Of a stretch of DNA of 64,000 nt, positions 1 through 62,325 are shown piece after piece (within the stretch, counting starts at the first letter, position 1; each line of letters opens with the position of its first letter). The DNA lies in NCBI RefSeq assembly GCF_004010195.1, contig NC_057754.1, positions 2,264,228 to 2,328,227 on the forward strand. Reading direction: 5' to 3'. Below the pieces are notes generated by a model. It ran no database searches. It saw only the letters and a list, made by a program, of their open reading frames with translations, and was not told the origin of the DNA. The translations under genes and the position numbers were made by a program. The stretch is from Chiloscyllium plagiosum (taxonomy: Eukaryota).

Positions 1-1665
1 CCAGGCCCACTGTCTGACAACACCCTGGGCCCACTGTCCGACCCCGCGTAAGCCCACTGTCTGACCCTGCTCCAGGCCCACTATCCGACCCCGCCCCAGG
101 CCTACTGTCTGACCTCACCCCAGACCCACAGTCTGACCCCGCATAGGCCCACTGTCCGACCCTGCCTCAGGCCCACTGTCCGACCCCGCCCCGGGCTCAC
201 TGTCTGACCCCGCCTCTGGCCCACTGTCCTCCCCCGCCCCTGGCCCACTGTCTGACCCCCGCCCCGGGCCCACTGTCTGACCCCGCCCCAGGCCTAGTGC
301 CACTGTCCGACCCCACCACGGGCCCATTGTCTGACCCCGCATGCGCCCACTGTCTGACCCTGCCTCAGGCCCCCTGTCCGACCCAACCCCGGGCCCACTG
401 TCTGACCCCGCATGGGCGCCTGTCTGACCCTGCTCTGGGCCCACTGCCCGACCCTGCCCCGGGCCCAGTGTCTGACCCTGCTCCAGGCCCACTGTCCGAC
501 CCCGCCCCAGGCCCACTGTCCGCCTCCGCCCCAGGCCCACTGTCCGACCCATCTCTGGGCCCACTGTCCGACCCCGCATAGGCCCACTGTCTGACCCCGC
601 CCCAGGCCCACTGTCCGACCCTGCCCCAGGCCCACTGTCTGACCTCACCCCAGGCCCACTGTCTGACTCCGCATAGGCCCACTGTCCGACCCTGCCTCAG
701 GCCCACTGTCCGACCCCTCCTCGGGCTCACTGTCTGACCCCGCCCCTGGCCCACTGTCTGCTCCCATCCCATGCCCACTGTCTGCTCGTGCCCCAGGCCC
801 ACTGTCTGCCCCTGCCCCTGCCCCAGGCCCACTGTCTGACCTCACCCCGGGCCCACTGTCTGACCCCGCCCCGGGCCCACTGTCCGAACCTGCCCCAGGC
901 CCACTGTCCGACCCTGCCCCAGGTCCACTGTCTGACCCCGCCTCTGGCCCACTGTCTGACCCCGCTCCGGGCCCACTGTCTGCTCCCGCCCCTGGCCCAC
1001 TGTCCGACCATGCCCCGGGCCCACTGTCCAACCCCGCATAGGCCCACTGTCCGACCCCACCCCAGGCCCACTGTCCGCGTCTGCCCCAGGCCCACTGTCC
1101 GACCCCTCTCTGGGCCCACTGTCCGACCCCGTATAGGCCCACTGTCCGCCCCCGCCCCAGGCCCACTGTCTGACCTCACCCCAGGCCCACTGTCTGACTC
1201 CGCATAGGCCCACTGTCCGACCCTGCCTCAGGCCCACTGTATGACCTTGCCCCAAGTCCACTGTCTGACCACGCCTCTGGCCCACTGTCTGACCCTGCCC
1301 TGGGCCCACTGTCCGACCCCGCTCCGGGCCCACTGTCCAACCCTGCCCCCGGGTGTACTCTCTGACCTCACCCCAGGCCCACTGTCTGACCCCGCATAGG
1401 CCCACTGTCTGACCCTGCCTCAGGCCCAATGTCCGACCCCGCCCCGGGCTCACTGTCTGACCCCACCTCTGGCCCACTGTCCGCCCCCGCCCCTGGCCCA
1501 CTGTCTGCTCCCGCCCCAGCCCACTGTCCGCCCCTGCCCCAGGCCCATTGTCCGACCCCACCCTGGGCTCACTGTCTGACCCCACATAGGCCCACTGTCC
1601 GACCCTGCCTCAGGTCCACTGTCCGACCCCGCCCCATGCCCAATGTCTGACCCCACTCTGGGCCA
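1..1665. repeat. GC-rich minisatellite, 23-24 bp unit (consensus CCAGGCCCACTGTCYGACCCCGCC), ~70 units, runs off the window start
   Basis: GGCCCACTGTC recurs every 23-24 nt. All ORFs here are 8-aa periodic (SDSGPGAG / RTVGLGRG). Confidence 0.97.
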
Positions 1666-1757
1666 CTGGCAGAAGAGGAAAAGGACAGAAGGCAAAAAGA
1701 ATGAAAGGAAAAAGGGAGAAAATGAGTAGATGAGCTTCAGCTGGAGCGTCTAACTCT

Positions 1758-1769
1758 GCCGCCATCTTG
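1758..1769 (-). promoter_or_regulatory. YY1-type motif CAAGATGGCGGC, possibly the 5' end of a minus-strand LINE
   Basis: Plus strand reads GCCGCCATCTTG, the known YY1 consensus often found at retroelement 5' ends. On the minus strand it precedes a pyrimidine tract and then the minisatellite. Confidence 0.4.
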
Positions 1770-1775
1770 CCATAG

Positions 1776-2285
1776 ATTGGACGGGAACTTGAAGGTGGTG
1801 GTTCTGTTGCCCTTGACCTTCTAGATGGAAATGGTCATGGGTGTGGAAGATGTTGACTGAGAATCTTTGATGAATTTCTGCAGTGTATCATGCAGCTAGT
1901 ACACTGCTGATGTTTGTAGATGTGGTGCCAATCAAGCAGGCTACTTTATCCTGGAAGGTGTTGAGCTTCTTGAGTATTGATGGAGTTGCACCTATCCAGG
2001 CAAGTGGGGAATATTCCATCACGCTCCTGACTTGTAGATGGTAGGCAGGCTTTGGTGAGTCAGGAAGTGAGTTACTTGCTGCAGTTTTCCTACCCTCTGA
2101 CCTGCTCTTGTATGTGGTGAGTCCACAAGAGTTTTTGGTCAATGGTAACTCCCAGGATGTTGATACTGAGGAATTCAGTGATGGTAGTACCGTTGAATAT
2201 CAAGGGGCAGAGGTTAGATTGTCTTTTATTGGTGATAGTCAGAGTCTGGCATTTGTGTGGCGCGAATGTTACTTGCCACTTGTCA
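1776..2285 (-). mobile_element. Decayed CR1/L2-group LINE, ORF2 C-terminal region
   Basis: Minus-strand ORF fragments KWQVTFAPHKCQ..INILGVTIDQKLLWTHHI and QVRSVMEYSPLAW..LKKLNTFQDKVACLIG. Confidence 0.85.
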
Positions 2286-2324
2286 TTGTTGTGGTTCATG
2301 TTCGCCGAGCTGGGAATTTGTGTT

Positions 2325-2364
2325 GCAAACGTTTCGTCCCCTGTCTAAGTGACATCCTCAGTGC
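2325..2364 (-). ncRNA. Minimal hammerhead ribozyme motif in the PLE pLTR (family D)
   Basis: Minus strand GCA-CTGAGGA-t-GTCAC-ttagacag-GGGAC-GAAAC-GTT-TGC. It has the core boxes, stem II, palindromic ACGT stem III and a 3-bp stem I. Confidence 0.75.
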
Positions 2365-2997
2365 TTGGGACCCTCCTGTGAAGCGCTTCTGTGATCTTTC
2401 CTCCGGCATTTGTAGTGGTTTGAATCTGCCGCTTCCGGTTGTCAGTTCCAGCTGTCGGTTACCGTGGTCAGTATTTTGGGTCCAGATCGATGTGCTTATT
2501 GATTGAATCTGTGGATGAGTGCCATACCTCTAGGAATTCCCTGGCTGTTCTCTGTTTGGCTTGTCCTATAATAATAGTGTTGTCCCAGCCGAATTAATGT
2601 TGCTTGTCATCTGCATGTGTGGCTACTAAGGATAGCTGGTCGTGTCATTTCGTGGCTAGTTGGTGTTCATGGAGGCGGGTCGTTAGCTGTCTTCCTGTTT
2701 GTCCTGTGTAGTGTTTTGTGCAGTTCTTGCATGGCATTTTGTACACTACATTGGTTTTGCTCATGCTGGGTATCGGGTCCTTCGTTCTGGTGAGTTGTTG
2801 TCTGAGAGTGGCTGTTGGTTTGTGTGCTGTTATGAGTCCTAGTGGTCGCAGTAGTCTGGCTGTCAGTTCGGAAACGCTCTCGATGTATGGTAGTGTGGCT
2901 AGTCCTTTGGGTTATGGCATGTCCTCTTTTCATTGTCTTTCCCTTAGGCATCTGTTGATGAAATTGCGTGGGTATCTGTTTTTGGCGAATACATTGT

Positions 2998-3266
2998 NNN
3001 NNNNNNNNNNNNNNNNNNNNNNNNNNNNNNNNNNNNNNNNNNNNNNNNNNNNNNNNNNNNNNNNNNNNNNNNNNNNNNNNNNNNNNNNNNNNNNNNNNNN
3101 NNNNNNNNNNNNNNNNNNNNNNNNNNNNNNNNNNNNNNNNNNNNNNNNNNNNNNNNNNNNNNNNNNNNNNNNNNNNNNNNNNNNNNNNNNNNNNNNNNNN
3201 NNNNNNNNNNNNNNNNNNNNNNNNNNNNNNNNNNNNNNNNNNNNNNNNNNNNNNNNNNNNNNNNNN
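2998..3266. other. Assembly gap (N run) inside the PLE RT
   Basis: Run of Ns. Confidence 1.
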
Positions 3267-3440
3267 TCTTTGTTGATAGGTTCAACGTCCTGTTGTCTGT
3301 TCTGTATGTCCAGCAGGTTGGCTATTGTTTCTCTGGCTAGGGTTTTGTCGATAGAGTTGAACAGTGCCATTACATCGAATGAGACCATGGTTTCTTCCTT
3401 GTCTATGTGTATATTTCTGATGATGTCCAAGGATTCCTGT

Positions 3441-4022
3441 CTAGATCTCCTTGCATTTTAACATGGACTGTTTCAGTATCTGAGCAGTTGCAAATGGTGC
3501 TGAACATTGTGCAATGATTGGCAAACATCCCCACTTCTGATCTTATGAGGGAAGGTCATTGATGAAGCAGGTATAAATGGTTGGGCCTAAGACATTAACT
3601 CCTGCAGAGATGTCATGGAGCTGAAATGACTGACCTCCAACAACCATGACCATCTTCCTATCTGCCAGGTATAACTCCAACCAGCAGAGAGTTTGCCATC
3701 TGATACTTATTGATTCCAGTGTTGGTAGGGTTCCTTAGCGCTGCACTTGATTGAATGCAGACTTGATATCAAGGGCTATCACTCTCACCTTCCCTCTGGA
3801 ATTTGGCTGTTTTGTCCATGTTTGAACCAAGGCTGTAATGAGGTCAGGAACTGAGTGGAACCCAAACTTGGCGTCAAGGAGCAGGTGTTGCTTAATAGCA
3901 TTATTGATGGCACCTTCCATTATTTTACTGATGATCGAGAGGAGACTGATGGAAAGGTAATTGGCCAGGTTGGATTTATCCTGCTTTTTATGAACAGAAC
4001 ATACCTCGCCAATTTTCCACAG
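3441..4022 (-). mobile_element. Continuation of the CR1/L2-group LINE (RT region)
   Basis: ORF 3735-3920: LLDAKFGF..PDLITALVQTW..VRVIALDIKSAFNQV (RT motif). Confidence 0.85.
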
Positions 4023-4357
4023 TGTTATAGGATATAATTAGCCTAATTAACCATTACTAGTAAAGTTCTTGTTGAGTGTTATGCGTTCACCCAGTCCTCC
4101 TTTTTGTTTCCTGACTTAATTGAGACTGATAGGCAGTAACAATGACACCGTTTCCCCAATCACCTCCACACACCGTGCCTTCCGCCGCCCATTACCACTA
4201 CCACTCACACACACCCTGACAGCTGCTGAACATACATCAGTTAAAAACCACCCTAGTTGATTAGCCATTGGTGCTGCAGAGATGATTTAAAGTTATTTAT
4301 GTCTCCTGTGATTTTCATTTCATCAGATTGACTTGGAACTCAGAAGACTGTCTGATA

Positions 4358-4990
4358 ATCATAGAGTCATGCAACACAGAAACAGACCCTTCAGTCTTAA
4401 CTTGCCATTGCCGACCAAGTTTCCCAAACTAAGCAAGGCCCATTTGTCTGCACTTGGCCCATATCCTTCTAAACCTTTCCTGTTCATGCATCTGACCATA
4501 TGTCTGTTAAATGTTGTAATTGTACCTGCATCTACCACTTCCTGTGGAAGTCCATTTCCACATACGCATAACCCTCTGTGTTAAAACGTTGCCCGTCAGG
4601 TCCCTTTTAAATCTTTCTTCTCTCAACTTAAAAATATGCCCCCTCGTTTTGAAATCCCGACTCTAGGGAAAAGACCTTTGCTATTAACCTTATGATTATA
4701 TAAATCTCTATAAGATCACTCCTCAACCTCCTACACTCCAATGAAAAAAGTCCCAGCCTATGCAGCCTCTCCTTCTAACCCGAGCCCTCCAGTACTGGCA
4801 ACATCCTAGTAAATATTTTCTGAACTCTCTTCTGAACTCAATTTAATAATACACTCCCTACAGCAGGGCCACAACTGCACACAATATTCCTGAAGTGGCC
4901 TCACCAACATCTTGTACAACCTCAGCATGATGTCTCAACTCCCATACTCAATGGTCTGAATAATGAAGGCAAGTATGCTAAATGCTATTA
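4358..4990 (-). mobile_element. CR1 (HER1-like) LINE 3' fragment
   Basis: Tail CATAGAGTCAT..AAACAGACCCTTC and body similar to the CR1 copies at 14767 and 45229. Confidence 0.85.
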
Positions 4991-5039
4991 CAACCCAACT
5001 GTTCATACATATATCTGAGATCTCTCTACATAATTGCTT

Positions 5040-5615
5040 CTCAGTTTCCTGTCGATTATTGGGAGGAGGCCTCTTAATATAATTCTATCAAGGTGATCAT
5101 GCCCTTATTTCTGAGATCCATCTATTCACTGGACAATCCCTCAGGAATATCCTCCTAAGTACAGCCGTAATGTTTTCCCTAAACAAGAATGCTACTCCCC
5201 CTGCCCTCTTGCCTCCCTTTCCTTCCTATCACATCTATAACCCAGAATATTGAGCTGTCAGTCCTATTCCTCCCTCAGCCATGCTTCTTCAAAGCTATGT
5301 TGTCCCAGTCCCATGTTCCCATACATGCCATAAGTTCATCCACCTTACCTGTCAGACCCCTTGCATTGAAATAAATGCAGTTTAACTCTTAAGTATTACC
5401 TCTTTCTCTAACTTGATGTTGCTTGTCTTGTCTAATTAACTTGCTCTCTTTCACTTCAAAACTATCCTCATCTATCTTTCCATTCTCACTATTCTTTTAG
5501 ATCCCTCCACACGTCCTTCCTGCTAGTTTAAAGGTTCCTGAATGGAACTAGCAAAGCTCTCCACCAGGATATTGGTCATCTTCCAGTTCAGGTGAAACCC
5601 AGCCCTTTTGAACAG
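5040..5615 (-). mobile_element. CR1 ORF1 C-terminus (esterase-like) and ORF2 AP-endonuclease start
   Basis: Minus-strand manual translation FKRAGFHLNWKMTNILVESFA..LN*, then LNCIYFNARGLTGKVDELMA. Confidence 0.75.
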
Positions 5616-6198
5616 ATCTGTTAACCCTGGTTACAACTTTATTTTATATCCTGAAGTGTTCTTATGCACAACTGAATATTTTTCTTCTCCCATCCCCAAA
5701 TCTCCATGACGTTTTTTTGTATTTAATTATAAACTGCCACTAGTAAATCACCTGTTTAGCCAACTGTATATTTACTAACAAAGCCCATTAAGGGCAATGC
5801 GATACAATCAGAAGGTGAAGAGGTGGTGGGGAGAGAGGGAAGGGGCTAAATCATAATGGTGTTATCCTGTTCCACAAGTCGTCACAAAATGTATAAATAT
5901 ATAAAATCCCAGTGACACTACCAAAATTTGCCTATCTGACAGGTTTCTTCAGTAGCAGTAAAGTAAAAGCAGTGAAAATAATTTCTAATGTATTCTAAAT
6001 AAACTATCTTCCTTCAATACATCACTCTCATACTCTCACACACTTACTTACACACTCTCACTCAATCACGTCTACCATGGGTGGGAAAACAAAATAGACA
6101 GGGTAGACAAAATTCTGAAGATCAAACATCCACACCACAAGGTAGAAAGATTTTTTCCTCATAGTCTTTCTGATTTTTGTTATAATGACCTTAATATA

Positions 6199-6511
6199 TT
6201 AGATTAGATTACATTACAGCATGGAAACAGGCCCTTCGGGCCAACAAGTCCACACCAACCCGCTGAAGCGCAACCCACCCATACCCCTACATTTACCCCT
6301 TACCTAACACTACGGGCAATTTAGCATGGCCAATTCACCTGACCTGCACATCTTTGGATTGTGGGAGGAAACCGGAGCACCCGGAGGAAAACCACACAGA
6401 CACAGGGAGAACGTGTAAACTCCACACAGTTAGTCACCTGAGGCGGGAATTGAACCCAGGCCTCTGGCGCTGTGAGGCAGCAGTGCTAACCACTGTGCCA
6501 CCGTGACGCCC
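6199..6511 (-). mobile_element. HE1-type V-SINE
   Basis: tRNA-like head (TGGCACAGTGG..GGTTCAATTCC), V-domain (GTGTGGAGTTT..GTGCTCCGGTTTCCTCCCACA) and CR1-like tail with (TAATC)n. Confidence 0.93.
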
Positions 6512-8470: not shown

Positions 8471-8756
8471 TTACACTGCAGCCAATTTGCACACAGCCAG
8501 GAGAGCCAGCAACGGTAATTTCCATTTGAGAAGTTAGTTGTGAGGGACCTTCTTGAACTGCTACAGTCTGTGTGATGTTATAGTTATTAGAGAGGGGAGT
8601 TTCAGAATGTCAAGTCAGTGACAGTGAAGAAACAGCAATTTAGCTCCAGGTTGGGATGGTGTATGACTTGGAGAGAAATTTGTAGGTGGTCACGATGCCA
8701 AGTATCTGCTGACCCTGTCCTGGAGGTGGCAGAGGTTACGGGTTTGGCAGTTGCTA

Positions 8757-8887
8757 GGAGAAAGTGAGGACTGCAGATGCTGGAAATTGGAGTGAAAAAA
8801 TGTGGCACTGGAAAAGCACAGCCGGTTAGGCAGCCTCCAAGGAGCAGGAGAGTCGATGTTTCGAGCATTAGCTCTTCATCAGGAATG
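8757..8887 (-). mobile_element. PLE pLTR fragment (family A) with hammerhead; 14-bp degenerate TSD
   Basis: Minus strand CATTC-CTGATGA-a-GAGC-taat-GCTC-GAAAC-ATC, ending CTCACTTTCTCC. Flanks are GTTTGGCAGTTGCT (8742) and GTTTGGAAGTTCCT (8887). Confidence 0.85.
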
Positions 8888-8936
8888 TTTGGAAGTTCCT
8901 GTTGAATGAGCCTAGGTGAGTCACTGCAATGCATCT

Positions 8937-13052: not shown

Positions 13053-13140
13053 GTTGACTCAAATGTGAAAATAGATTCTTCTCAAAATAAAAAAAAATCC
13101 CATTCAGGGCAATCAAGGGAATCTGTTAAGAAAATGATTA

Positions 13141-13367
13141 AAAACCCAAAGAACTGCAGTTGCTGTAAATTAGAGACAAAAATAGAAATTGCTGGAAAAA
13201 CTCAGCAGGTCTGGCAGCATTGTGGAGAGAAATCGGAATTAACGTTTTGGGTTGAGTGACCCTTCCTCATTGAGAAAGAGTCACTCAACCCGAACCGTTA
13301 ACTCTGATTTCTATCCACAGATGTTGTCAGACCTGCTGAGCTTTTCCAGTAATTTCTATTTTTGTCG
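13141..13367. mobile_element. Inverted pair of PLE pLTR fragments (family C), 13-bp TSD
   Basis: Arms are reverse complements about 13270. Each has a degenerate TGARRAAGRGTCACTCAACCCRAAMCGTTAA hammerhead. Flanks are AAGAAAATGATTA (13128) and AAGGAAATGATTA (13368). Confidence 0.85.
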
Positions 13368-15541
13368 AAGGAAATGATTAGCTCAGCTGAAGTGTCAGCA
13401 GTCTGGCCCAAAATGGAAAGTGCTGACAGCTCCTCAGCTTAAGGGTTTCAGTTTGTGAGAACTTTCAGATTGAAGAGAGTTTGGTTGGAGATCTGCAATG
13501 GTTATTCGAAGTTGAAAGATCTCAGTTGTTTGATTCAAAGAAAATGATTTGTCAGCGCACAGGACCAAGATTAAAATGAAGCTGCTAAGTCAATCTACAG
13601 ATTTGATGTGAAGGGAGAATTTCTGTCAATTTTGATTAACTGTAAAATGAAACCATTGGGGATTGGATGGGATTTTGTTTTGCTGGATGCTTGAAACTTT
13701 ATAATCTGTGTGAACTGTGGATATCTTGGTTTGTTTTATTCTTCCTTTTGCATAATAAACTTTTGCTTTATTGTTAAAGCCAAATCTGCAGCCTAGTGTG
13801 CTTATGTTTCAGTGAAAGACCACCACACTAAATTAATAAACCAAAATGTGAGCGATCAAGCCAGATTTCCTCCTGGTTTCTGACTCGTCGAATAGCAACA
13901 ATAGCTGGGATCATAACATTGTTACAAATGGCTCCAACTTGCCAACAAATCTCATTCTTGATTTCTTTACCACCCTTTCATGGTCGACATTAAGGAATAA
14001 CAATATGGTAACAGATCCGTTGTTATTTCTTCTTTCAACCCAGACAGACTCCATTTGAGCCCTATCGTTGATATAAAAACCTTCCTTTTTACCTCTTTAA
14101 TTGTGCCCTTAAGCTAAGGAACCATTCCACTTCCTTTTATTGTATCTCGTGACAGCCAGCTGAAGTCAAGCTTTCAGTAAGACTTTAACACTTGATCTCT
14201 CTGTTGAATCTCTCAACTCTCTGACATCGTTTTTAATGGTTCGTAGATTTGCATAAAACCCTGCAATGCTGGACACATTCGTATGCCTCAGTAACCTTTA
14301 CACAGCTTTCAGTTTATATTCTTTCCTTCAAAGGTTTTCCCACATTTATCCAAAACTTGTTATTTTTACCCATTGCTATATTCCTTCACTATGCATTATG
14401 GTTTATTTAATCTATAAATATATCTGTCAAGCACCATCTTAAACACTAAGTGTATCAGATTTATTACATTTCTGGTTGTGAAATCCTGCTTTGTGCAATG
14501 TTGGCTCTCATATTTTCCAATATTGCAACAGTCACAATAATTTGACTTTAAGGCACTTTCAGATGTGCACAAGTCATGCAAGTCATTGCATAGATCCAAG
14601 ATTTATTTTCTGTATATGGCAGAGATGTACCCAAAGTTTGGAGATCCTTCTAAGCACTACCAGTAGCTTGGATTAATGCAACGATGTGGCTCTGTATGAT
14701 GGTGGTGGACAGGTCAGAGTGATGGAGAGCCACTAGAAGTCAAACCTGTGACTGTCTCGCTTCAGGTTAGAGTCACAGAGATGTACAGCATGGAAACAGA
14801 CCTTACAGTCCAACCCGTCCAAGCCGACCAGATATCCCAACCCAATCTAGTCCTACTTGCTTGGACCTGGCCCATATCCCGTTAAACCCTTCCTATTCAG
14901 ATACCCATCCAGATGCTTTTTAAATGTTGCGATTGTATTAAACTCCACCACTTCCTCTGGCAGCCATTCCACAAACATACCAGCTTCTGCATGAAAAAGT
15001 TGCCCTTAGGTCTCTTTTATATCTTTCCCCTCTCACCCTAAATCTATGCCCACTAGTTCTGGACTCCAGGGAAAATACTTTGTCTATTTACTCTATCCAT
15101 GCCCCTCATGATTTTATAAACCTCTATAAAGTCAACCCTCAGCCTCTGACACTCTGGGGAAAACAGTCCCAGCCTATTCAACATCTGTCTATAGCTCAAA
15201 TCCTCCAACCCTGGCAACATCCTTGTAAATCTTTTCTGAACCCTTTCAAGTTTCACAACATCTTTCCAAAAGGAAGGAGACCAAAATTGCATGCAACGTT
15301 ACAAAAGTGGCCTAACCAATGTCCTGTACAGTTGCAACATGACCTCCCAACTCCTGTACTGAATACTCTGACCAATAAAGGAAAGCATACCAAACGCCTT
15401 CTTCACTATCCTATCTACATGCGACTCCGCTTTCAAGGAGCTATGAACCTGCACTCCAAGGTCTCTTTGTTCAGCAACACTCTCTGGGACCTTACCATTA
15501 AGTGTATATGTCCTGCTAAACTTTGGTTCCCCTTTGGTTAT

Positions 15542-17697: not shown

Positions 17698-18232
17698 ATA
17701 GAATCCCTCCAGTGTGGAAACAGGCCCTTTGGTCCAACAAGTCCACACCAACCCTCAAAGAGTAACCCACACAGACCCATTTCCCTACCCTATTGCTTTA
17801 CATTTGCCTAATCTACACATCCCTGAACATTATGGGCAATTTAGCTTGGCCAATTCACATCTTTGGATTGTGGCAGTAAAGTGGGGGGTTGAGAGTGTGG
17901 TGCTGGAAAAGCACAGCAGGTCAGGCAGTATCCGAGGAGCAGGAGAGTCAACGTTTCGGGCGTAAACCCTTCATCAGGAATGCTGCCCAATGAAGGCCTC
18001 CTCGGATGCTACCTGACCTGCTGTGCTTTTCCAGCACCACACTCTCAACTCTGATCTCCAGCAGCTAGTATTTTCTCCATTGTGGGAGGAAACTGGAGCA
18101 CCCGGAGGAAACCCACGCAGACACAGGAAGAACGTGCAAGCTCCACACAGACAGTCACCCGAGGCTGGAATCAAGCCCTGGTCCCTGGTGCTGTGAGGCA
18201 GCAGTGCTAACCACTGAGCCCCCTTGCTTCCC
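17698..18232 (-). mobile_element. HE1-type V-SINE interrupted by a PLE pair
   Basis: Tail at 17698. The V-domain resumes at 18079 and the head ends at ~18230. Confidence 0.9.
17874..18078. mobile_element. Inverted pair of PLE pLTR fragments (family A), 7-bp TSD ATTGTGG
   Basis: The minus arm has CTGATGA-a-GGGT-ttac-GCCC-GAAAC-GTT and the plus arm ends TTTTCTCC. ATTGTGG occurs at 17867 and 18079. Confidence 0.85.
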
Positions 18233-39742: not shown

Positions 39743-39990
39743 TTCTGTTGAAGCGTCAGCAGAGTCAAAATATAAATTCTGCTTTCCCCCTGCAGATATT
39801 GCCAGACCTGCTGAATTTCACCAGCAATTTCTGTTTTCATTACTGGCCCACAACTTGGTTTAGTGATCTGCCTCCAGTCCTGGCTGCAAGCCACAATAAG
39901 CTAAGGCCGTTTAAATTCCAGATCTGCTGAGCTTTTCCAGCAGTTTCTTTTGTTTTGTTTCTTATTTCCGACATCCATAGTTCTTCCAGT
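39743..39990 (+). mobile_element. Two degenerate PLE family C pLTR fragments
   Basis: GCCAGACCTGCTGAATTTCACCAGCAATTTCTG and CCAGATCTGCTGAGCTTTTCCAGCAG resemble 13325-13365. Confidence 0.65.
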
Positions 39991-50661: not shown

Positions 50662-51319
50662 GTAGAATCCCTACCGAGTGGAAATAGGTCCTTCGACCCA
50701 ACAAGTCCACACTGACCCTCTGAAGAGTATCCCACCCAAACCCACTCCCCTACATTTACCCTGACTCATGCACCTTACCTACACATCCCTGGACACTACG
50801 AGGCAATTTAGCACGGCCAATTCACCCTAACCTGCATATCCCTGAACACTATGGGGCAATTGAGCACAGCCAATCCACCTTAACCTGCACTACCCTGAAC
50901 ATTATGGGGCAATTGAGCATGGCAGATGCTGGAGATTAGAGTCGAGAGTGTGAGGCTGGAAAAGCACAGCAGGTCAGGCATCCAAGGAGCAGGAAAATCA
51001 ACGTTTCGGGCAAAAGCCCTTCATCAGCAAGGCTTGATGAAGAGCTTTTGCCTGAAACATTGATTTTCCTGCAATTTAGCATGGCCAAATTCACCTAACC
51101 TGCGCATCCCTGACCACTGTGGGCAATTTAGCACAGCCAATTCACCTAACCTGCACACCTTTAGACTGCGGGAGAAAACTGGAGCACCCAGAGGAAATCC
51201 ACGCAGACACAGGGAGAATATATAAACTCCACCCAGACAGTTCCCCGAGGCTGGAATCAAACCCCGGTCCCTGATGCTGTGAGGCAGCAGTGCTAGCCAA
51301 TAAGCCACCATGCCACCCC
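50662..51319 (-). mobile_element. V-SINE with an internal ~50-bp tandem expansion and a PLE insertion
   Basis: About five copies of ACCTGCAYATCCCTGRACACTAYGGGGCAATTKAGCAYRGCCAATTCACCTA between tail and V-domain. Confidence 0.88.
50922..51071. mobile_element. Inverted pair of PLE pLTR fragments (family A), both with hammerheads
   Basis: Minus arm CTGATGA-a-GGGC-tttt-GCCC-GAAAC-GTT. Plus arm TTGATGA-a-GAGC-tttt-GCCT-GAAAC-ATT. Flanks GCAATTKAGCATGGC. Confidence 0.85.
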
Positions 51320-54591: not shown

Positions 54592-55630
54592 TATTAGCCA
54601 TGGGAATTGTAGGGTTTTGAGGAATAAGGCAGTGGAGTGGTCTGAGTGGGATGTTCTTCGGAGGGTTGGTGTGGACTCGATGGGCTGAATGGCTTGCTTC
54701 CACACTGTGACGATTTTATGATTCTAAAACATGTGCAGGAGCAGAGAGACCTGGGAAAATATGTGCATGAGTCAGAAAAGATGGCAGGACAGGTGGAAAG
54801 TGCACAGCATAATGAAGCGTACATTATCCTCAGCTTTATAAATAGTGGCATAGAAGGCAAAAATAAGGAGGTACTAACTACTGGACAGACCACCCAATCT
54901 AGACACAAGAAAAGATCATGGCAACCCCGTTGACCTGGTGAAATCTTCCGAGCAAACATTTGGAAGTTAGTGACAAAATTGGGAGAGGTGTCTCACAGAC
55001 TAGTCAAAGAACGCACTGACATAGTCATACTTGTGGAAACATACCTTACAGACAATGTTACTGGTGGCCCAGTGCTTTATGGTCAGGAGGGAGCGCCCTA
55101 GGAGTTCTCAATATTAAGTCTGGACTCCATGAAGTCTCAAGGCACCAGGTCAAACTTTCTGCTGGTTACCATTTATTGCCTACTCTCAACTGATGGAACA
55201 GTTCTCCTCTAAGCTGCACAACACTTGGAGGAAATACTGAGGGTGGCAAGGCCACAAAGTGCTGTGGTTAGGGAACTTGATCATTAAGAGGAGCACAACA
55301 GTGCCACTATTAAGGTGGTTAAGTCCTAAAGAACATTGCTGCTCTGTGATGAGGGAACCAGCGAGGGAGAGAAAAGACTTACCAGATCCTGACCAATGTG
55401 CCTGCTGCAGATGCACCTGTCCGTGACAGTCTCGGTAGAAGTGACCACCACACAGTCTTTGTGAGGATGACATCCTGTCTTCATATTGAGGGTACCCCCC
55501 TCCATTATGTTAGGTGGCACCATCACCATGCTAAATGGAATAGGTTTTAAACAGATGTGGCAACTCAAGAATCTCCAACACAAACTGCAACATCATGGCC
55601 AACATTTCTCGTAATTACCATTACCCTCAA

Positions 55631-56405
55631 GAGTGGGGTGCTGGAAAAGCACAGCAGGTCAGGCAGCATCCAAGGATCAGGAGAATCGACGTTTTGGGCC
55701 AGAGCCCTTCATCAGGAATGAGGCTGGAAGCCTCAGGGGTGGAGAAGTAAATGGGAGAGGAGTGTCATTTATTGTATCCATTGCTCCCGATGTGGTCTCC
55801 TCTACATTGGGGAGACTGGACACCTTCTTGCAAAGAGCTTTAGAGAACATCTCCGGGACACTTGCACCAGTCAACCCCACCGCCCCGTGGTTGAACATTT
55901 CAACTCCCCCTCCCACTCTGCCAAGGACATGCAGTTCCTGAGCCTCCTCCATCACCACTCCCTCATCACCCGGCCCCTGGAGGAAGAACGCCTCATCTTC
56001 TGCCTCAGGACCCTTCAACCCCAGGGCATCAACGTGGACTTCACCAGTTTCCTCATTTCCTCTCCCCCCACCTTACCCCAATTCCAACCATCCAGCTTAG
56101 CACTGTCCTCATGACCTATCCCACCTGTCATTCTTCCTTCCCACCTATCCGCTCCACCCTCCTCTCCGACCTATCACCTTTACCCCCCCTCCATCCACCT
56201 ATTGCATTCTTAGCTACATTCTCCCCAGTCCCAACCCCCTCCCATTTATATCTCCACCCCCGAGGCTCCCATCCTCATTCCTGATGAAGGGCTCTGGCCC
56301 GAAACGTGGATTCTCCTGCTCCTAGGATGCTGCCTGACCTGCTGTGCTTTTCCAGCAACACACTCTTGACTCTGACCTCCAGCATCTGCAGACCTCACTT
56401 TCTCC
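55631..56405 (+). mobile_element. Neptune-like PLE (family A): inverted pLTR, GIY-YIG domain and pLTR, perfect 14-bp TSD
   Basis: ACCATTACCCTCAA at 55617 and 56406. The open frame 55764-56114 reads VIYCIHCSRCGLLYIGETG..FREH..HFNS..EERLIF..QPQGIN. 55631-55760 is the reverse complement of ~56238-56365. Confidence 0.93.
56276..56312 (+). ncRNA. Minimal hammerhead motif (family A)
   Basis: CATTC-CTGATGA-a-GGGC-tctg-GCCC-GAAAC-GTG-GATT. The triplet is GUG here versus GUC in the sister copy. Confidence 0.7.
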
Positions 56406-56659
56406 ACCATTACCCTCAAACCAGAAGATTAGCCCTGTTCAATGAACAGTGCAAGAGAGCATTCCAGGAGCAGCACCAGGCATATCTGAAAATGAGTTGT
56501 CAATCAGGTGTGCCACATACCATCAGTGTCAACCAATGGATCAGATCTAAACTCTACAGCCTTGCTACACCAGACGTGCCCAGCATCACAGATGCCAGCT
56601 TTCAGCCAATTCAGTTCACTCAATGTGATATCAGTAGCAGCAGAATATACCATCCACAA

Positions 56660-57290
56660 GGTGCACAGGTGAAAGGTCAGAGGGAAGAGGGGAAATGAGG
56701 AAACTGGTGAAATCCACGTTGATGACGTGGGGTTGGAGAGTCCTGAGACGGAAAATGAATCGTTCTTCCACCAGGCATCAGGTGGTTAGGGAGTGGCAAT
56801 GGGGGAGGCCCAGGACCTGCATGTCCTCAGCGGAATTGGAGGAGGAATTGAAGTGTTCGGCCATGGGGCAGTGGGGTTGATTGGTGCAGATGTCCCGGAG
56901 GTGTTCTCTGAAGCACTCTGCGAGAGGGCGGCCTGTTTCCCCAATGTAGAAGAGAGTGCAATGGGAGCAACGGATACAGTAAATGATGTGTGTGAAAGTG
57001 CAGGTGAAACTTTGATGGATGTGGAAGGTTCCTTTGGGGCCTTGGACGGAGGTGAAGGGGGAGGTTTTACAATTTCTGCGGTGACGGGGAATGTGCCAGG
57101 AGGGGAGGGTGGGTTGTTGGGGGGTGTGGACCTGACAAGGTAGTCATGGAAGGAATGGTCTTTACGGAAAGCAGATAGGGGTCAGGATGGAAATATATCT
57201 CTGGTGATGGGGTCCGATTGCAGGTGGTGGAAATGGCGGAGGATAATGTGCTGTATCTGGAGATTAGTGGGGTCAAAGGTGAAGACCAGA
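56660..57290 (-). mobile_element. Neptune-like PLE fragment (Cys linker and GIY-YIG)
   Basis: Minus translation RRNCKT..TSVQGPKGTFHIHQSFTCTFTHIIYCIRCSHCTLFYIGETGRPLAECFREHLRD. Confidence 0.9.
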
Positions 57291-58631: not shown

Positions 58632-58989
58632 TATATAACTTCAAGTATTTTTTGTTGGACCCGAGCAGACATCAATGCCTTCAGGAAATGAGGAGTTTGC
58701 AAATATAAACATCCTAGTGGCTTCCACTTTATTTAATGCTTTGATCCTTAGTAATAGTTTATGTATGGACAATAATTGACTTACTCTATTGTCATTGAAG
58801 TTTGAGCACTGACAAAATTCTGGATCTTGTTTTACTACAAGCATCACCTGAAATAACAGGAGAATTGAAGTAGCTAAACGGGACAGATGTCTGGAGATTC
58901 TCAATTTAAACATTTTCATATTATAATCAGAAAAAGGGAATCAGGACTGTGCCCAGATCCCAGGCCTGCCCACTAGAGGAAGATGTCAG

Positions 58990-59079
58990 GCACCCTCGGA
59001 TGCTGGTTGACCTGGTGTGCTTTTCCAGCACCAAACTCTTCGACTCTGATCTGCAGCATGTGCAGTCCTCACTTTCTCC
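58990..59079 (+). mobile_element. PLE family A 3' tail only, ~19-bp TSD
   Basis: Ends CAGTCCTCACTTTCTCC. CACYAGAGGAAGAKGTCAG occurs at 58971 and 59080. Confidence 0.8.
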
Positions 59080-59976
59080 CACCAGAGGAAGAGGTCAGTC
59101 TTTCGGGATTTTCAAGGCAATGTCTCTTAATTGGCACTGAAACAGTTTTATTGAATTCAAATTCTACGTTCTGCCTTTGCATGATTTAAACCCTGGTCCC
59201 TAGAACATCACCTGGGTCTCTAGATTAATAGTACAGTGATAATACCACAAGGTCATTATACAGTGTGGAGGCAAAGCATATATAAAGCATAGCATTTTGG
59301 CCCATAAAATCCAAGCACTTACCACATACTGTACACTTCTTATTTGCTATTCCCTATTCAAGTATGTGTCTCTGGACTTTGTAAAGTGATCAATGCACAT
59401 TAATGGAAATATGGATACTTTGTAGCACAAGAGATTTTCTTTGAGTTGGATTTTGTTGTAAAACAGGTTAACAATGCTCATTGTTACTTGCGCATATACT
59501 GGACAGCAACTTTATCAATTGAACACGTGCAGTGAAAATTTCAAAGTTTCTTGTCATCTGATTCACCATTCAAACCAAATGAACAGACAATAGATGCTGT
59601 ACTCAACTATAAGATACAGAATAAACACACCAGAGAAGATAGATCAGGGTTTCTTCTTTCCTATGTATTTAACTGCTTAAACCTGTAGTAAGTCTTAATT
59701 AGTCCTCAGATGGTGCATCCACTTAAGGTTGACTACTGAATACCTGATTCATCTCCATTGTATTAACCATGCATCTGTGTAGTTCACCATTGATGGTGGG
59801 GGATGAGGCTGAACAGAGATAGTATGTTGACTTTAAGGCAGACTCATGCAGAGTTGTTGGAATAAGGTTCATCTACGCTGACTATACACAGCAAAGCTGG
59901 TCTAGACTCTAGAGACAATGATCAATGTTTACACATATGATCTGCAGTCTGACAAGATTGACATTGATAATGTTAC

Positions 59977-60202
59977 CTCTCCGTCCCCACCCCAGTCTGA
60001 CCTATCACCCTCACTTTGACCTCTTTCCACCTATCACATTTCCGACGCCCCTCTCCCAAGTCCCTCCTCCCTACCTTTTATCTTAGCCTGCTGGACAAAC
60101 TTTCCCCATTCCTGAAGAAGGGCTTATGCCCGAAACGTCGATTCTCCTGTTCCCTGGATGCTGCCTGACCTGCTGCGCTTTTCCAGCAACACATTTCCAG
60201 CT
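59977..60202 (+). mobile_element. PLE family A pLTR
   Basis: Similar to 56150-56365. Confidence 0.85.
60107..60143 (+). ncRNA. Best-preserved minimal hammerhead motif (family A)
   Basis: CATTC-CTGAAGA-a-GGGC-ttat-GCCC-GAAAC-GTC-GATT, with intact core and a GUC triplet. Confidence 0.78.
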
Positions 60203-61558
60203 GTAAGTTAAAGAGACAAGTTTTTTGAAGCTTCTAACATATGCTTAAATACCACAAACCAACAAGCGATGCCAACATTTTGTGATCTTAATTTCTATAT
60301 CTGGGGTCCAACCTCACTCATCACTGCTGCATGTAGAAAATCCCTATACTCCAGAGTGTGCCTTTACCTATCCAGTAGCCAAATAATTGTTAACAAATCT
60401 GGGGATCAAACAGCAAGCTCTTCTAACCATGTTTCGGTTTGCTGGTCTTATTGCCTGGCTCCCATCTGATGTCCCTTGACTTCAGACAGTGATGAAATAA
60501 ATAAATACTTACCGGTCCTTGGCTTAGAGTAGGAACAGTCTGGCAGATTTATTGAACAGTAACTGGATAATTGAACAGATGCAATAACAAACTTAGATTT
60601 ACCGTAGTTATAGGCTTAACTATGCCTCCTCTTAAGATAAAAGGTAATGAATCATCCTGTCTGCTGCACCAAGCTGTTGGAGTGAATATAATGGAATGGA
60701 ACGGTGGGCCTGCATTCCTTGTAGCATTTGTTCAAAAGACCTGCAACTGACAGGCACCTCACTTGCTCCAATCGGATTATTACAGACTTTCCACCGAGGC
60801 ATCATTTGTTACCAGCTTTAAGAACTGCAGTGTGCCCTACCTTCTGCCAGTCCATAGCCATCCTCAATCCCAGCTTCCTATCTGACCCAAGCTGAGCTCC
60901 TGAGGCCCACAAACACACCCTATCACCCTGACCAGCTACTCACACAATGTGGAAGAGAAATCTGGAACTCCAAAAGTCTGTGAACATTTGTTGAAATTTT
61001 CAAGACTGGGATAGATGTTTTTGAGGAAAGTTTTGAGGAAAATGGAACTGGTATCCATACCAATCACGATCCAGTTAAGTGGTGGAGAATGGGCTGTTCC
61101 AGTTCCTGAGGCTCTGAATCAATGATATTACTGTGCAATATGATTAAAAACAGTTCCCCTGTTTGTGCACCATTCTCAGCAGCAGGTCACTTTCTTTCAA
61201 AGTCCTGTCTTAGCGATCATAGAGTCCAACACAGAGGGAGGCCATTTGGCCCATCTTGCCCCTGCACCTTTTAGATTAGTCCCACTTATTTACCTTTTTT
61301 CCTCAGTTGTTATAATGTTTCCCTTTAAAGTTGTGTATGATTCCCTCTGAAAGTTACTATGGAATCAGGTTTAACAGCATCTCAGACGGCACATTCCAGA
61401 TCACAGCAACTCACTGCAAAACATCTTATTCCTTCTGCTTTCCTTTGGTCAATTATCTTAAATCTGCATCCTGTGGTAACTCAGCTTGCTGCTGCTGGAA
61501 ACAGCATCTCCATATTTACTTTTCCAAAATCATGCATGGTTACTGGATGTCTCTATTT

Positions 61559-61640: not shown

Positions 61641-62325
61641 AATGAGCTACACTCTTGCATTAGGAAACAATAAACTGTGGGAGGACTACACTGTAATGCG
61701 ACCAGCATTAACAGCAAGAATGACATTAATAATTAGTAATGGTGCAATAGATTGTCATCTCCAGATTGGAGACACTCAGCTCTGTATGAGAGCACGGAAC
61801 ATGTCCTCTTCCTGAAGGCTGTACTTTTGTGCATTTTGGTTACTATTCCTGATGGTTGTGGTTTAAATGTTTTATTGGTTTTGTGAATGCAATAAATCCT
61901 TCTGGCAAGACAAAACAGGTGAAATATTTTCAGGTTTCGAGAGTGGAATGTTTGAAATGCACAGCAAGTGGGTCGGTGTGACAAGGAAACAGGTGTGGGT
62001 TAATGGTTTTCTCTCGCCCTTCATCAAAGGGCTCTTCCAGTCAGGATTAGAAACCCTAAAGCAACCTTGTCCTGGCCATCAATCCTCGCAGCCAACAGCA
62101 GAGTGGTTCAGTGTTGAAACATAGCCCCCTTTACGACCCTAGCCATCTTAGATGGGGGTTTGGGCTTGAAAACACAAACAGATCCACCATGATCATATTG
62201 AATGGTGGAGCAGGCTTCAAGGACTGATCAGTCTATATCTGTTCCTAGTTCATATTCCCACATTGAAAGGTTCTGAAGCCACTTTGACAGCTGCTGAGAA
62301 AAGGCCTACTCTCTCTTTTGAGAGA

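Follow-up and report, generated by a model that had tools for sequence, protein, structure and literature searches.

How does a Penelope-like element (PLE) come to carry, inside a single TSD, an inverted and shortened copy of its own 3' end? The question is raised by positions 55617-56419 of the window (the whole 64,000-nt stretch of Chiloscyllium plagiosum DNA that was analysed), and the way in which PLEs make inverted ends is still called undefined in the literature (PMC8557442). The insert at this site is almost certainly a dead, old, 5'-truncated EN+ PLE whose 5' end carries an inverted copy without a tail. From left to right it consists of the inverted tail-less arm, a 5'-truncated GIY-YIG end, the 3' UTR, the pLTR and a 36-nt tail, and the features of the insert and its target are as follows:

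55353..55616, + strand: target, a decayed multi-copy coding repeat that continues after 56419
55617..55630, + strand: left TSD copy, its last 4 nt overlapping the end of the inverted arm
55627..55760, - strand: inverted arm, tail-less and 5'-truncated (3' UTR end plus pLTR core), mirroring 56236-56369
55688..55715, - strand: minimal hammerhead homologue of the left arm, in which the conserved GAAA reads AAAA (55695)
55761..55764: four junction letters, untemplated or diverged arm, of uncertain origin
55765..56114, + strand: end of the PLE ORF, a GIY-YIG endonuclease with CCHH motif, 5'-truncated, with no start codon and no RT
56115..56275, + strand: 3' UTR, pyrimidine-rich, with a read depth of 1,250-6,400 that marks it as family sequence
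56276..56369, + strand: pLTR core, by read depth the most abundant part of the family
56281..56308, + strand: minimal hammerhead homologue of the right arm (helix II at 56289-56300, cleavage triplet GTG at 56308)
56370..56405, + strand: 36-nt tail, present on the right arm only
56406..56419, + strand: right TSD copy

The two copies of the TSD, ACCATTACCCTCAA, match at 14 of 14 positions (55617-55630 and 56406-56419) and enclose a 775-bp insert, which confirms the perfect 14-bp duplication around two opposed arms described in the original prediction; by chance, a 60x60 box would yield a match of this kind with a probability of about 1e-5. Over 134 nt the arms (55627-55760 on the - strand, 56236-56369 on the + strand) are identical at 122 positions and differ at 12 (91% identity), and no microhomology between the two 5' ends was found at the central junction (55761-55764). 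Homology to the element begins at 55765, as judged from a second copy in the window (56687-56986; 81%), so the first codon of the frame (55764) is partly junction-made. This second copy of the focal family (56687-57290, - strand) is longer and more decayed, and lies 270 bp from the focal insert.

Of the reads in one raw-read run of Chiloscyllium plagiosum, 216,271 map on a 1,251-bp stretch. Read depth was about 89,000 at 56324-56365 in the pLTR vs. about 3 at 55568-55609, just left of the TSD, and the focal family comprises tens of thousands of copies in the genome. Behind the right-arm end at 56405, 25,381 family reads break off in loose ends with unrelated flanks (agreement 0.35), so that this arm does have the complete 3' end ascribed to it earlier. 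Another 21,671 loose ends lie behind 56362, where true ends are mixed with continuing variant copies (agreement 0.48), and these were excluded as proof of a fixed tail-less end.

Between the arms, 116 codons (55764-56111) are stop-free, as had been predicted, and the stop follows at 56112-56114. The Pfam GIY-YIG match of this frame is weak (E 0.037, below the cut-off); relatives that have RT plus GIY-YIG are matched at E 1e-32, the best two (75% and 68% identity) being assigned to Chiloscyllium punctatum by their source. In the closer one (P0001), RT lies upstream of the matching EN, with RVT_1 below the cut-off. The frame contains the GIY-YIG with CCHH motif (two Cys between GIY and YIG), and none of the solved structures matched it by sequence. 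Codon 25 is Ser, but the family reads mostly (5,905 of 6,826) carry the letter giving Arg; we take this to be the catalytic Arg position on the basis of the alignment and a published statement of the residues. The GIY-YIG residues are stated there as R, H, E and N (PMC8557442), and a literature search on the catalytic Arg found no paper. The probability that the frame stays stop-free is 0.46-0.63 for 30-18 random changes, and 10 of the 18 listed coding differences alter the residue vs. 71% expected at random, a small count in which some silent differences may derive from the source element. The open frame thus loses the meaning that had been attached to it, as openness arises by chance about half the time or slightly more, the conserved Arg is lost and no start is present; selection on the frame is rejected, as is an active or domesticated GIY-YIG gene, given the missing start codon, the Ser for Arg, the share of residue-changing differences and the chance of openness.

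Each arm has one copy of the 12-mer helix-II variant GGGCTCTGGCCC and there is no third in the window, so within the window the loop variant is confined to these two arms, as first noticed. The family motif has the features given for minimal PLE hammerheads (Cervera and de la Pena 2014), namely the core boxes, an extra base between 9 and 10.1, G10.1-C11.1 and a palindromic 15.2-16.2. In the focal copy each arm has a lesion in the catalytic core (AAAA for GAAA on the left, GTG at the cleavage triplet on the right), and a functional hammerhead is rejected for both; the earlier statement that both arms contain the hammerhead holds as homology and fails for an intact core. No Rfam family reached its gathering score in the window. 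Folding of four 51-76-nt pieces gave z-scores of -1.1 to 0.5 and recovered only helix II, so that fold stability is no evidence for a hammerhead.

The layout is already published as typical of PLEs, and the focal locus is a clean example of a known architecture. An inverted shorter pLTR with TSD (8-10 bp) and optional tail (31 bp) has been called 'the typical Penelope structure' (PMC3846280), an inverted 5'-truncated copy with TSD and one-sided tail is drawn as the general PLE arrangement in Fig. 2 of Craig et al. 2021 (PMC8557442), and inverted pLTRs, like short 3' extensions, are among the known peculiarities given in a curation guide (PMC8969392). The insert shows the marks of an EN+ PLE in its pLTR-type end with a 36-nt one-arm tail and in the inverted 5'-truncated copy inside one TSD. 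With Pen2a_Av and Pen2, as described by Arkhipova et al. 2013 (PMC3846280), it shares an inverted shorter pLTR at the 5' end, a head-to-head junction, one TSD, a one-arm tail (36 bp in the focal insert, 31 bp in those elements) and a target that is probably another retroelement; unlike them, its main copy retains only the endonuclease and lacks a direct pLTR upstream, the TSD is 14 bp rather than 8-10 bp, the junction has no palindrome, and it belongs to a far larger family in a vertebrate host. The Neptune/Nematis architecture as set out in PMC8557442 is alike in the inverted 5'-truncated copy, the 30-40-bp one-end tail, the pLTR hammerhead and the C-terminal GIY-YIG with CCHH, whereas the focal copy is without linker and RT. 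A CX4CxxC linker is found upstream of GIY-YIG in three relatives (P0001, P0004 and P0005); the second window copy retains a decayed version, and truncation has removed it from the focal copy. As a CX2-5CxxC linker is given as the mark of Neptune and Nematis and not of Penelope/Poseidon (PMC8557442), the focal element is probably of Neptune/Nematis type, a placement based on the linker of its relatives and not on an RT tree.

Other PLE-like sequences in the window include a tail-less copy at 59975-60203, whose 3' UTR differs from the focal one (73% alike) and which has no TSD within the 60-nt flanks searched, and a solo tailed copy at 8742-8900 with a 12/14 TSD, no inverted arm and its 5' end just upstream of the hammerhead core. 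Weak profile matches at 39743-39942 and 61937-62026 (E 0.003-0.006) may be more distant pLTR families. Window positions 1-2000 have a GC content of 0.67 with strong negative GC skew, compared with 0.39-0.50 in the rest of the window, and the window contains 269 N. Pattern scans of metagenome contigs gave 0 matches.

The target repeat had no match in Pfam; by its motifs, we take it to be the endonuclease region of an old LINE. After removal of the insert and one TSD copy, the reading frame across the site looks continuous. With respect to an empty site, no paralogue in the window spans the insertion site, homologue searches with the flanks found nothing, and a profile-free search with the target returned six proteins, of which three plausible relatives cover the left flank only and none spans the site. 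Likewise, no joint skipping the insert occurs among the best 15 of 2,509 joints. Of these 15, 14 link a position in the left arm to one in the right, the pattern that other head-to-head copies produce on the focal reference.

Four further TSD-flanked head-to-head pairs or stubs were found in the window (TSDs 12/13, 15/18, 14/15 and 19/21). A pair of a second PLE family (13128-13380, 12/13 TSD) has a palindromic centre (about 13250) and a tail on the left arm only, and its tail-less arm ends at the homologue of the focal left end, without microhomology. The pair at 17867-18096 belongs to the focal family (family A) and lies in another short repeat; it has a 15/18 TSD and a tailed right arm with an apparent deletion of about 28 nt in the hammerhead. 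At 50909-51085, a 147-bp pair with a 14/15 TSD has two non-standard 3' ends (20 nt into the tail, and the equivalent of 56319), a 2-nt target overlap at each end and a private letter common to both arms. Lastly, a tailed 86-nt copy at 58969-59098 (19/21 TSD) is perhaps preceded by a 3-nt inverted stub with 5-6 nt of target microhomology, which could be chance.

The left arm of the focal insert lacks 36 nt, or 40 nt if the TCAA overlap is assigned to the target, and the '~40 nt' reported as missing is the known PLE tail. Published tails measure 30-40 bp, often at one end only (PMC8557442), 31 bp and optional (PMC3846280), or 34-37 bp (PMC2377424). The 4-nt TCAA microhomology needs a T at 56367, a CpG position at whose equivalent all three gap-free family-A arms covering the site (in two other pairs) have C, and with C in the source the match falls to 3/4. 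Four of six tail-less arms in the window end near the tail base (the focal one, 17885, 13367 and about 60203), and the two exceptions (51070 and 58990) both end at short microhomologies. Among the other three arms ending near the tail base, the two with a TSD have no clear microhomology, and microhomology as the cause of the left end is therefore rejected; the shortfall seen earlier stands, and the role given to TCAA in setting the end does not.

Whether both arms stem from one event was assessed from shared variants, divergence and related genomes. At 56296, the right arm is at odds with 39,725 of 42,439 reads, and the left arm, at the mirror site 55700, with 20,226 of 21,358, so that about 94% of family reads are without the shared loop letter; at 56294, the right arm is contradicted by 30,510 of 42,371 reads. 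With at least 30 shared columns required and two comparisons below 30 dropped, paired arms are 91.9-93.0% alike in all three family-A pairs of the window vs. 71.2-89.7% in 31 unpaired comparisons, which bears out, within the window, the expectation that paired arms are more alike than unpaired ones. Paired arms are also mutual best matches in 3/3 pairs; the corresponding value of 1.7e-4 for top ranking is indicative only, as it assumes independence of comparisons that are not independent. No second duplication flanks the left arm (55630/55761). The right copy differs from the read majority at 29 or more of 641 sites (4.5%, from the best 40 of 302 rows), and the arm-to-arm distance of 9% is about twice this value, as expected for arms identical at insertion and also of two same-age copies of one subfamily. 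Contigs of three organisms (A, B and C) contain the left flank plus 26 letters of the inverted arm, less than the 31-letter bridging rule, with 0, 7 and 6 other letters in 257, and the left junction is present in two related species. The right junction is probably present in B, one of whose contigs matches 12 tail letters plus the right flank with 12 differing and 25 gapped letters; no contig spans the whole insert among the matches listed. Since the flank differs by <3% between species and the arms by 9%, the insertion would, at equal rates, predate those splits. An origin of the arms from one integration event and one source is supported by the single TSD without a second duplication, the shared rare letter, the likeness of paired arms in the window and the left junction in the relatives' contigs.

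Sequential insertion is accordingly rejected on the single TSD and the rare letter common to both arms. Taken together, two independent insertions, with the inverted arm arriving later at the 5' junction of the first, and assembly error are very unlikely: the great abundance of the family, the 9% between the arms and the want of a spanning contig among the listed matches would suit them, but the absence of a second duplication at 55630/55761, the junctions seen in A, B and C (left) and probably B (right), and arms too different to be a collapsed copy speak against them. In L1 twin priming, both target ends prime and an inverted 5' segment comes to lie in one TSD, but the two segments come from parts of the RNA that do not overlap. 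The focal arms are copies of one and the same 134-nt stretch; the overlap in template that had been noted thus holds, and an L1-type product is rejected.

The reading that we favour, with a probability of roughly 45%, is a single old retrotransposition in which both target ends were primed on the same transcript at two RT starts and the cDNAs were joined head to head. The geometry of the insert, the common source of its arms and its decay can be read directly; every step of the reaction is an inference. The element's protein would make a 14-nt staggered cut; one target 3' end would prime cDNA at the distal start (the tail end, 56405) for a run of 641 nt, the other would prime on the same transcript at the proximal start (the tail base, about 56365-56369), perhaps aided by 3-4 paired bases, for a run of about 134 nt; and the two truncated cDNAs would then be joined head to head and repaired. 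Work in vitro with a purified PLE protein from a lizard, a predicted dimer, has shown cleavage and extension of both target strands, and reverse transcription that begins at two internal sites bracketing the tail (PMC11167929), which makes two-end priming the best single explanation. The genomic ends found here fall on the two RT starts that bracket the tail in that system, the Anolis carolinensis Poseidon of Frangieh et al. 2024 (PMC11167929), although it belongs to another clade and uses an AT-rich ATT target, whereas the focal target is a coding repeat (the TSD does contain ATT); in the portions of the study available, two-strand extension is not tied to inverted copies. The recurrence of tail-less ends at the tail base (4/6 window arms) favours priming at both ends, and against it stand the two arms of six that end elsewhere, at short microhomologies, and the fact that, in all readable pairs, the tail-less arm is nested in the tailed one, give or take a few bases.

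Such nesting is required if the first cDNA folds back, and priming at both ends does not require it. In this alternative, which we consider possible though somewhat improbable, a single TPRT starts from the right nick, the 3' end of the cDNA folds back or jumps onto its own strand at 56236 and copies the pLTR in sense, stops or is cut at the tail base, and joins the other target end via TCAA/TTGA pairing, so that one RNA with one pLTR suffices. Besides the nested arms of the window pairs, it agrees with near-symmetric palindromes, which are frequent in the family (joints 55718-55723 to 56273-56276, and the palindromic centre at about 13250), with the short microhomologies at the non-standard ends of the 50909 and 58969 insertions, with the tally of pairs carrying two full tails (0/5 in the window), and with the ascription of the tail to endonuclease resolution of an intermediate (PMC8557442). 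The focal central junction, however, has neither microhomology nor palindrome and a 470-nt loop would be needed, and the fixed stop at the tail base calls for an extra assumption where the two measured RT starts give it directly (PMC11167929). The products seen here fit the fold-back and priming at both ends equally, so the earlier proposal that both 3'-OH ends of the staggered cut were primed gains plausibility from the lizard protein's extension of both strands without being singled out. The original prediction went further and held that the template must have offered the pLTR twice, as a tandem transcript or as two RNAs in a hammerhead dimer; this does not follow, as an identical product arises if one RNA is copied a second time or if the first cDNA acts as the template. 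PLEs do form partial tandems and are transcribed across them, and minimal hammerheads have been proposed to work as dimers, but hammerhead mutants left insertion in vitro unchanged (PMC11167929), which leaves the link to a dimeric ribozyme unsupported, two independent RNAs would often give arms of different variants (3/3 pairs match), and independent starts predict some two-tailed pairs, of which none is seen in this small sample. On these small numbers the two-RNA or ribozyme-dimer version is the weakest of the three models, and we regard it as improbable. Self-priming on an antisense template before integration, proposed for the head-to-head repeats with junction palindromes of rotifer Penelopes (PMC3846280), is decidedly improbable here: the focal junction has no palindrome, and the in vitro measurement is of sense-template priming at the tail (PMC11167929).

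Within the favoured reading, in which both target ends are primed on one transcript, it is conceivable, if doubtful, that a dimer of the PLE protein works on a single RNA and uses two adjacent RT starts, at the tail end and the tail base, one for each target end, so that every complete inverted insertion would have exactly one tail, with both arms derived from one molecule. Bearing on this are the lack of two-tailed pairs among the five of the window and the common source of the arms in all three testable pairs; a literature search, whose coverage did not extend to older key papers, found no paper stating a link between the one-sided tail and the inverted arm. The locus itself is a dead copy, and its value is that of one data point on how PLEs form inverted ends. 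If true, the action of one dimer on one RNA would account for an inverted structure that has long lacked an explanation, with no need of tandem templates or a ribozyme dimer. It can be examined by counting, since the genome has tens of thousands of copies; the same copy number lets priming at both ends, fold-back and the two-RNA model be separated by counting arm ends, nesting and shared variants.
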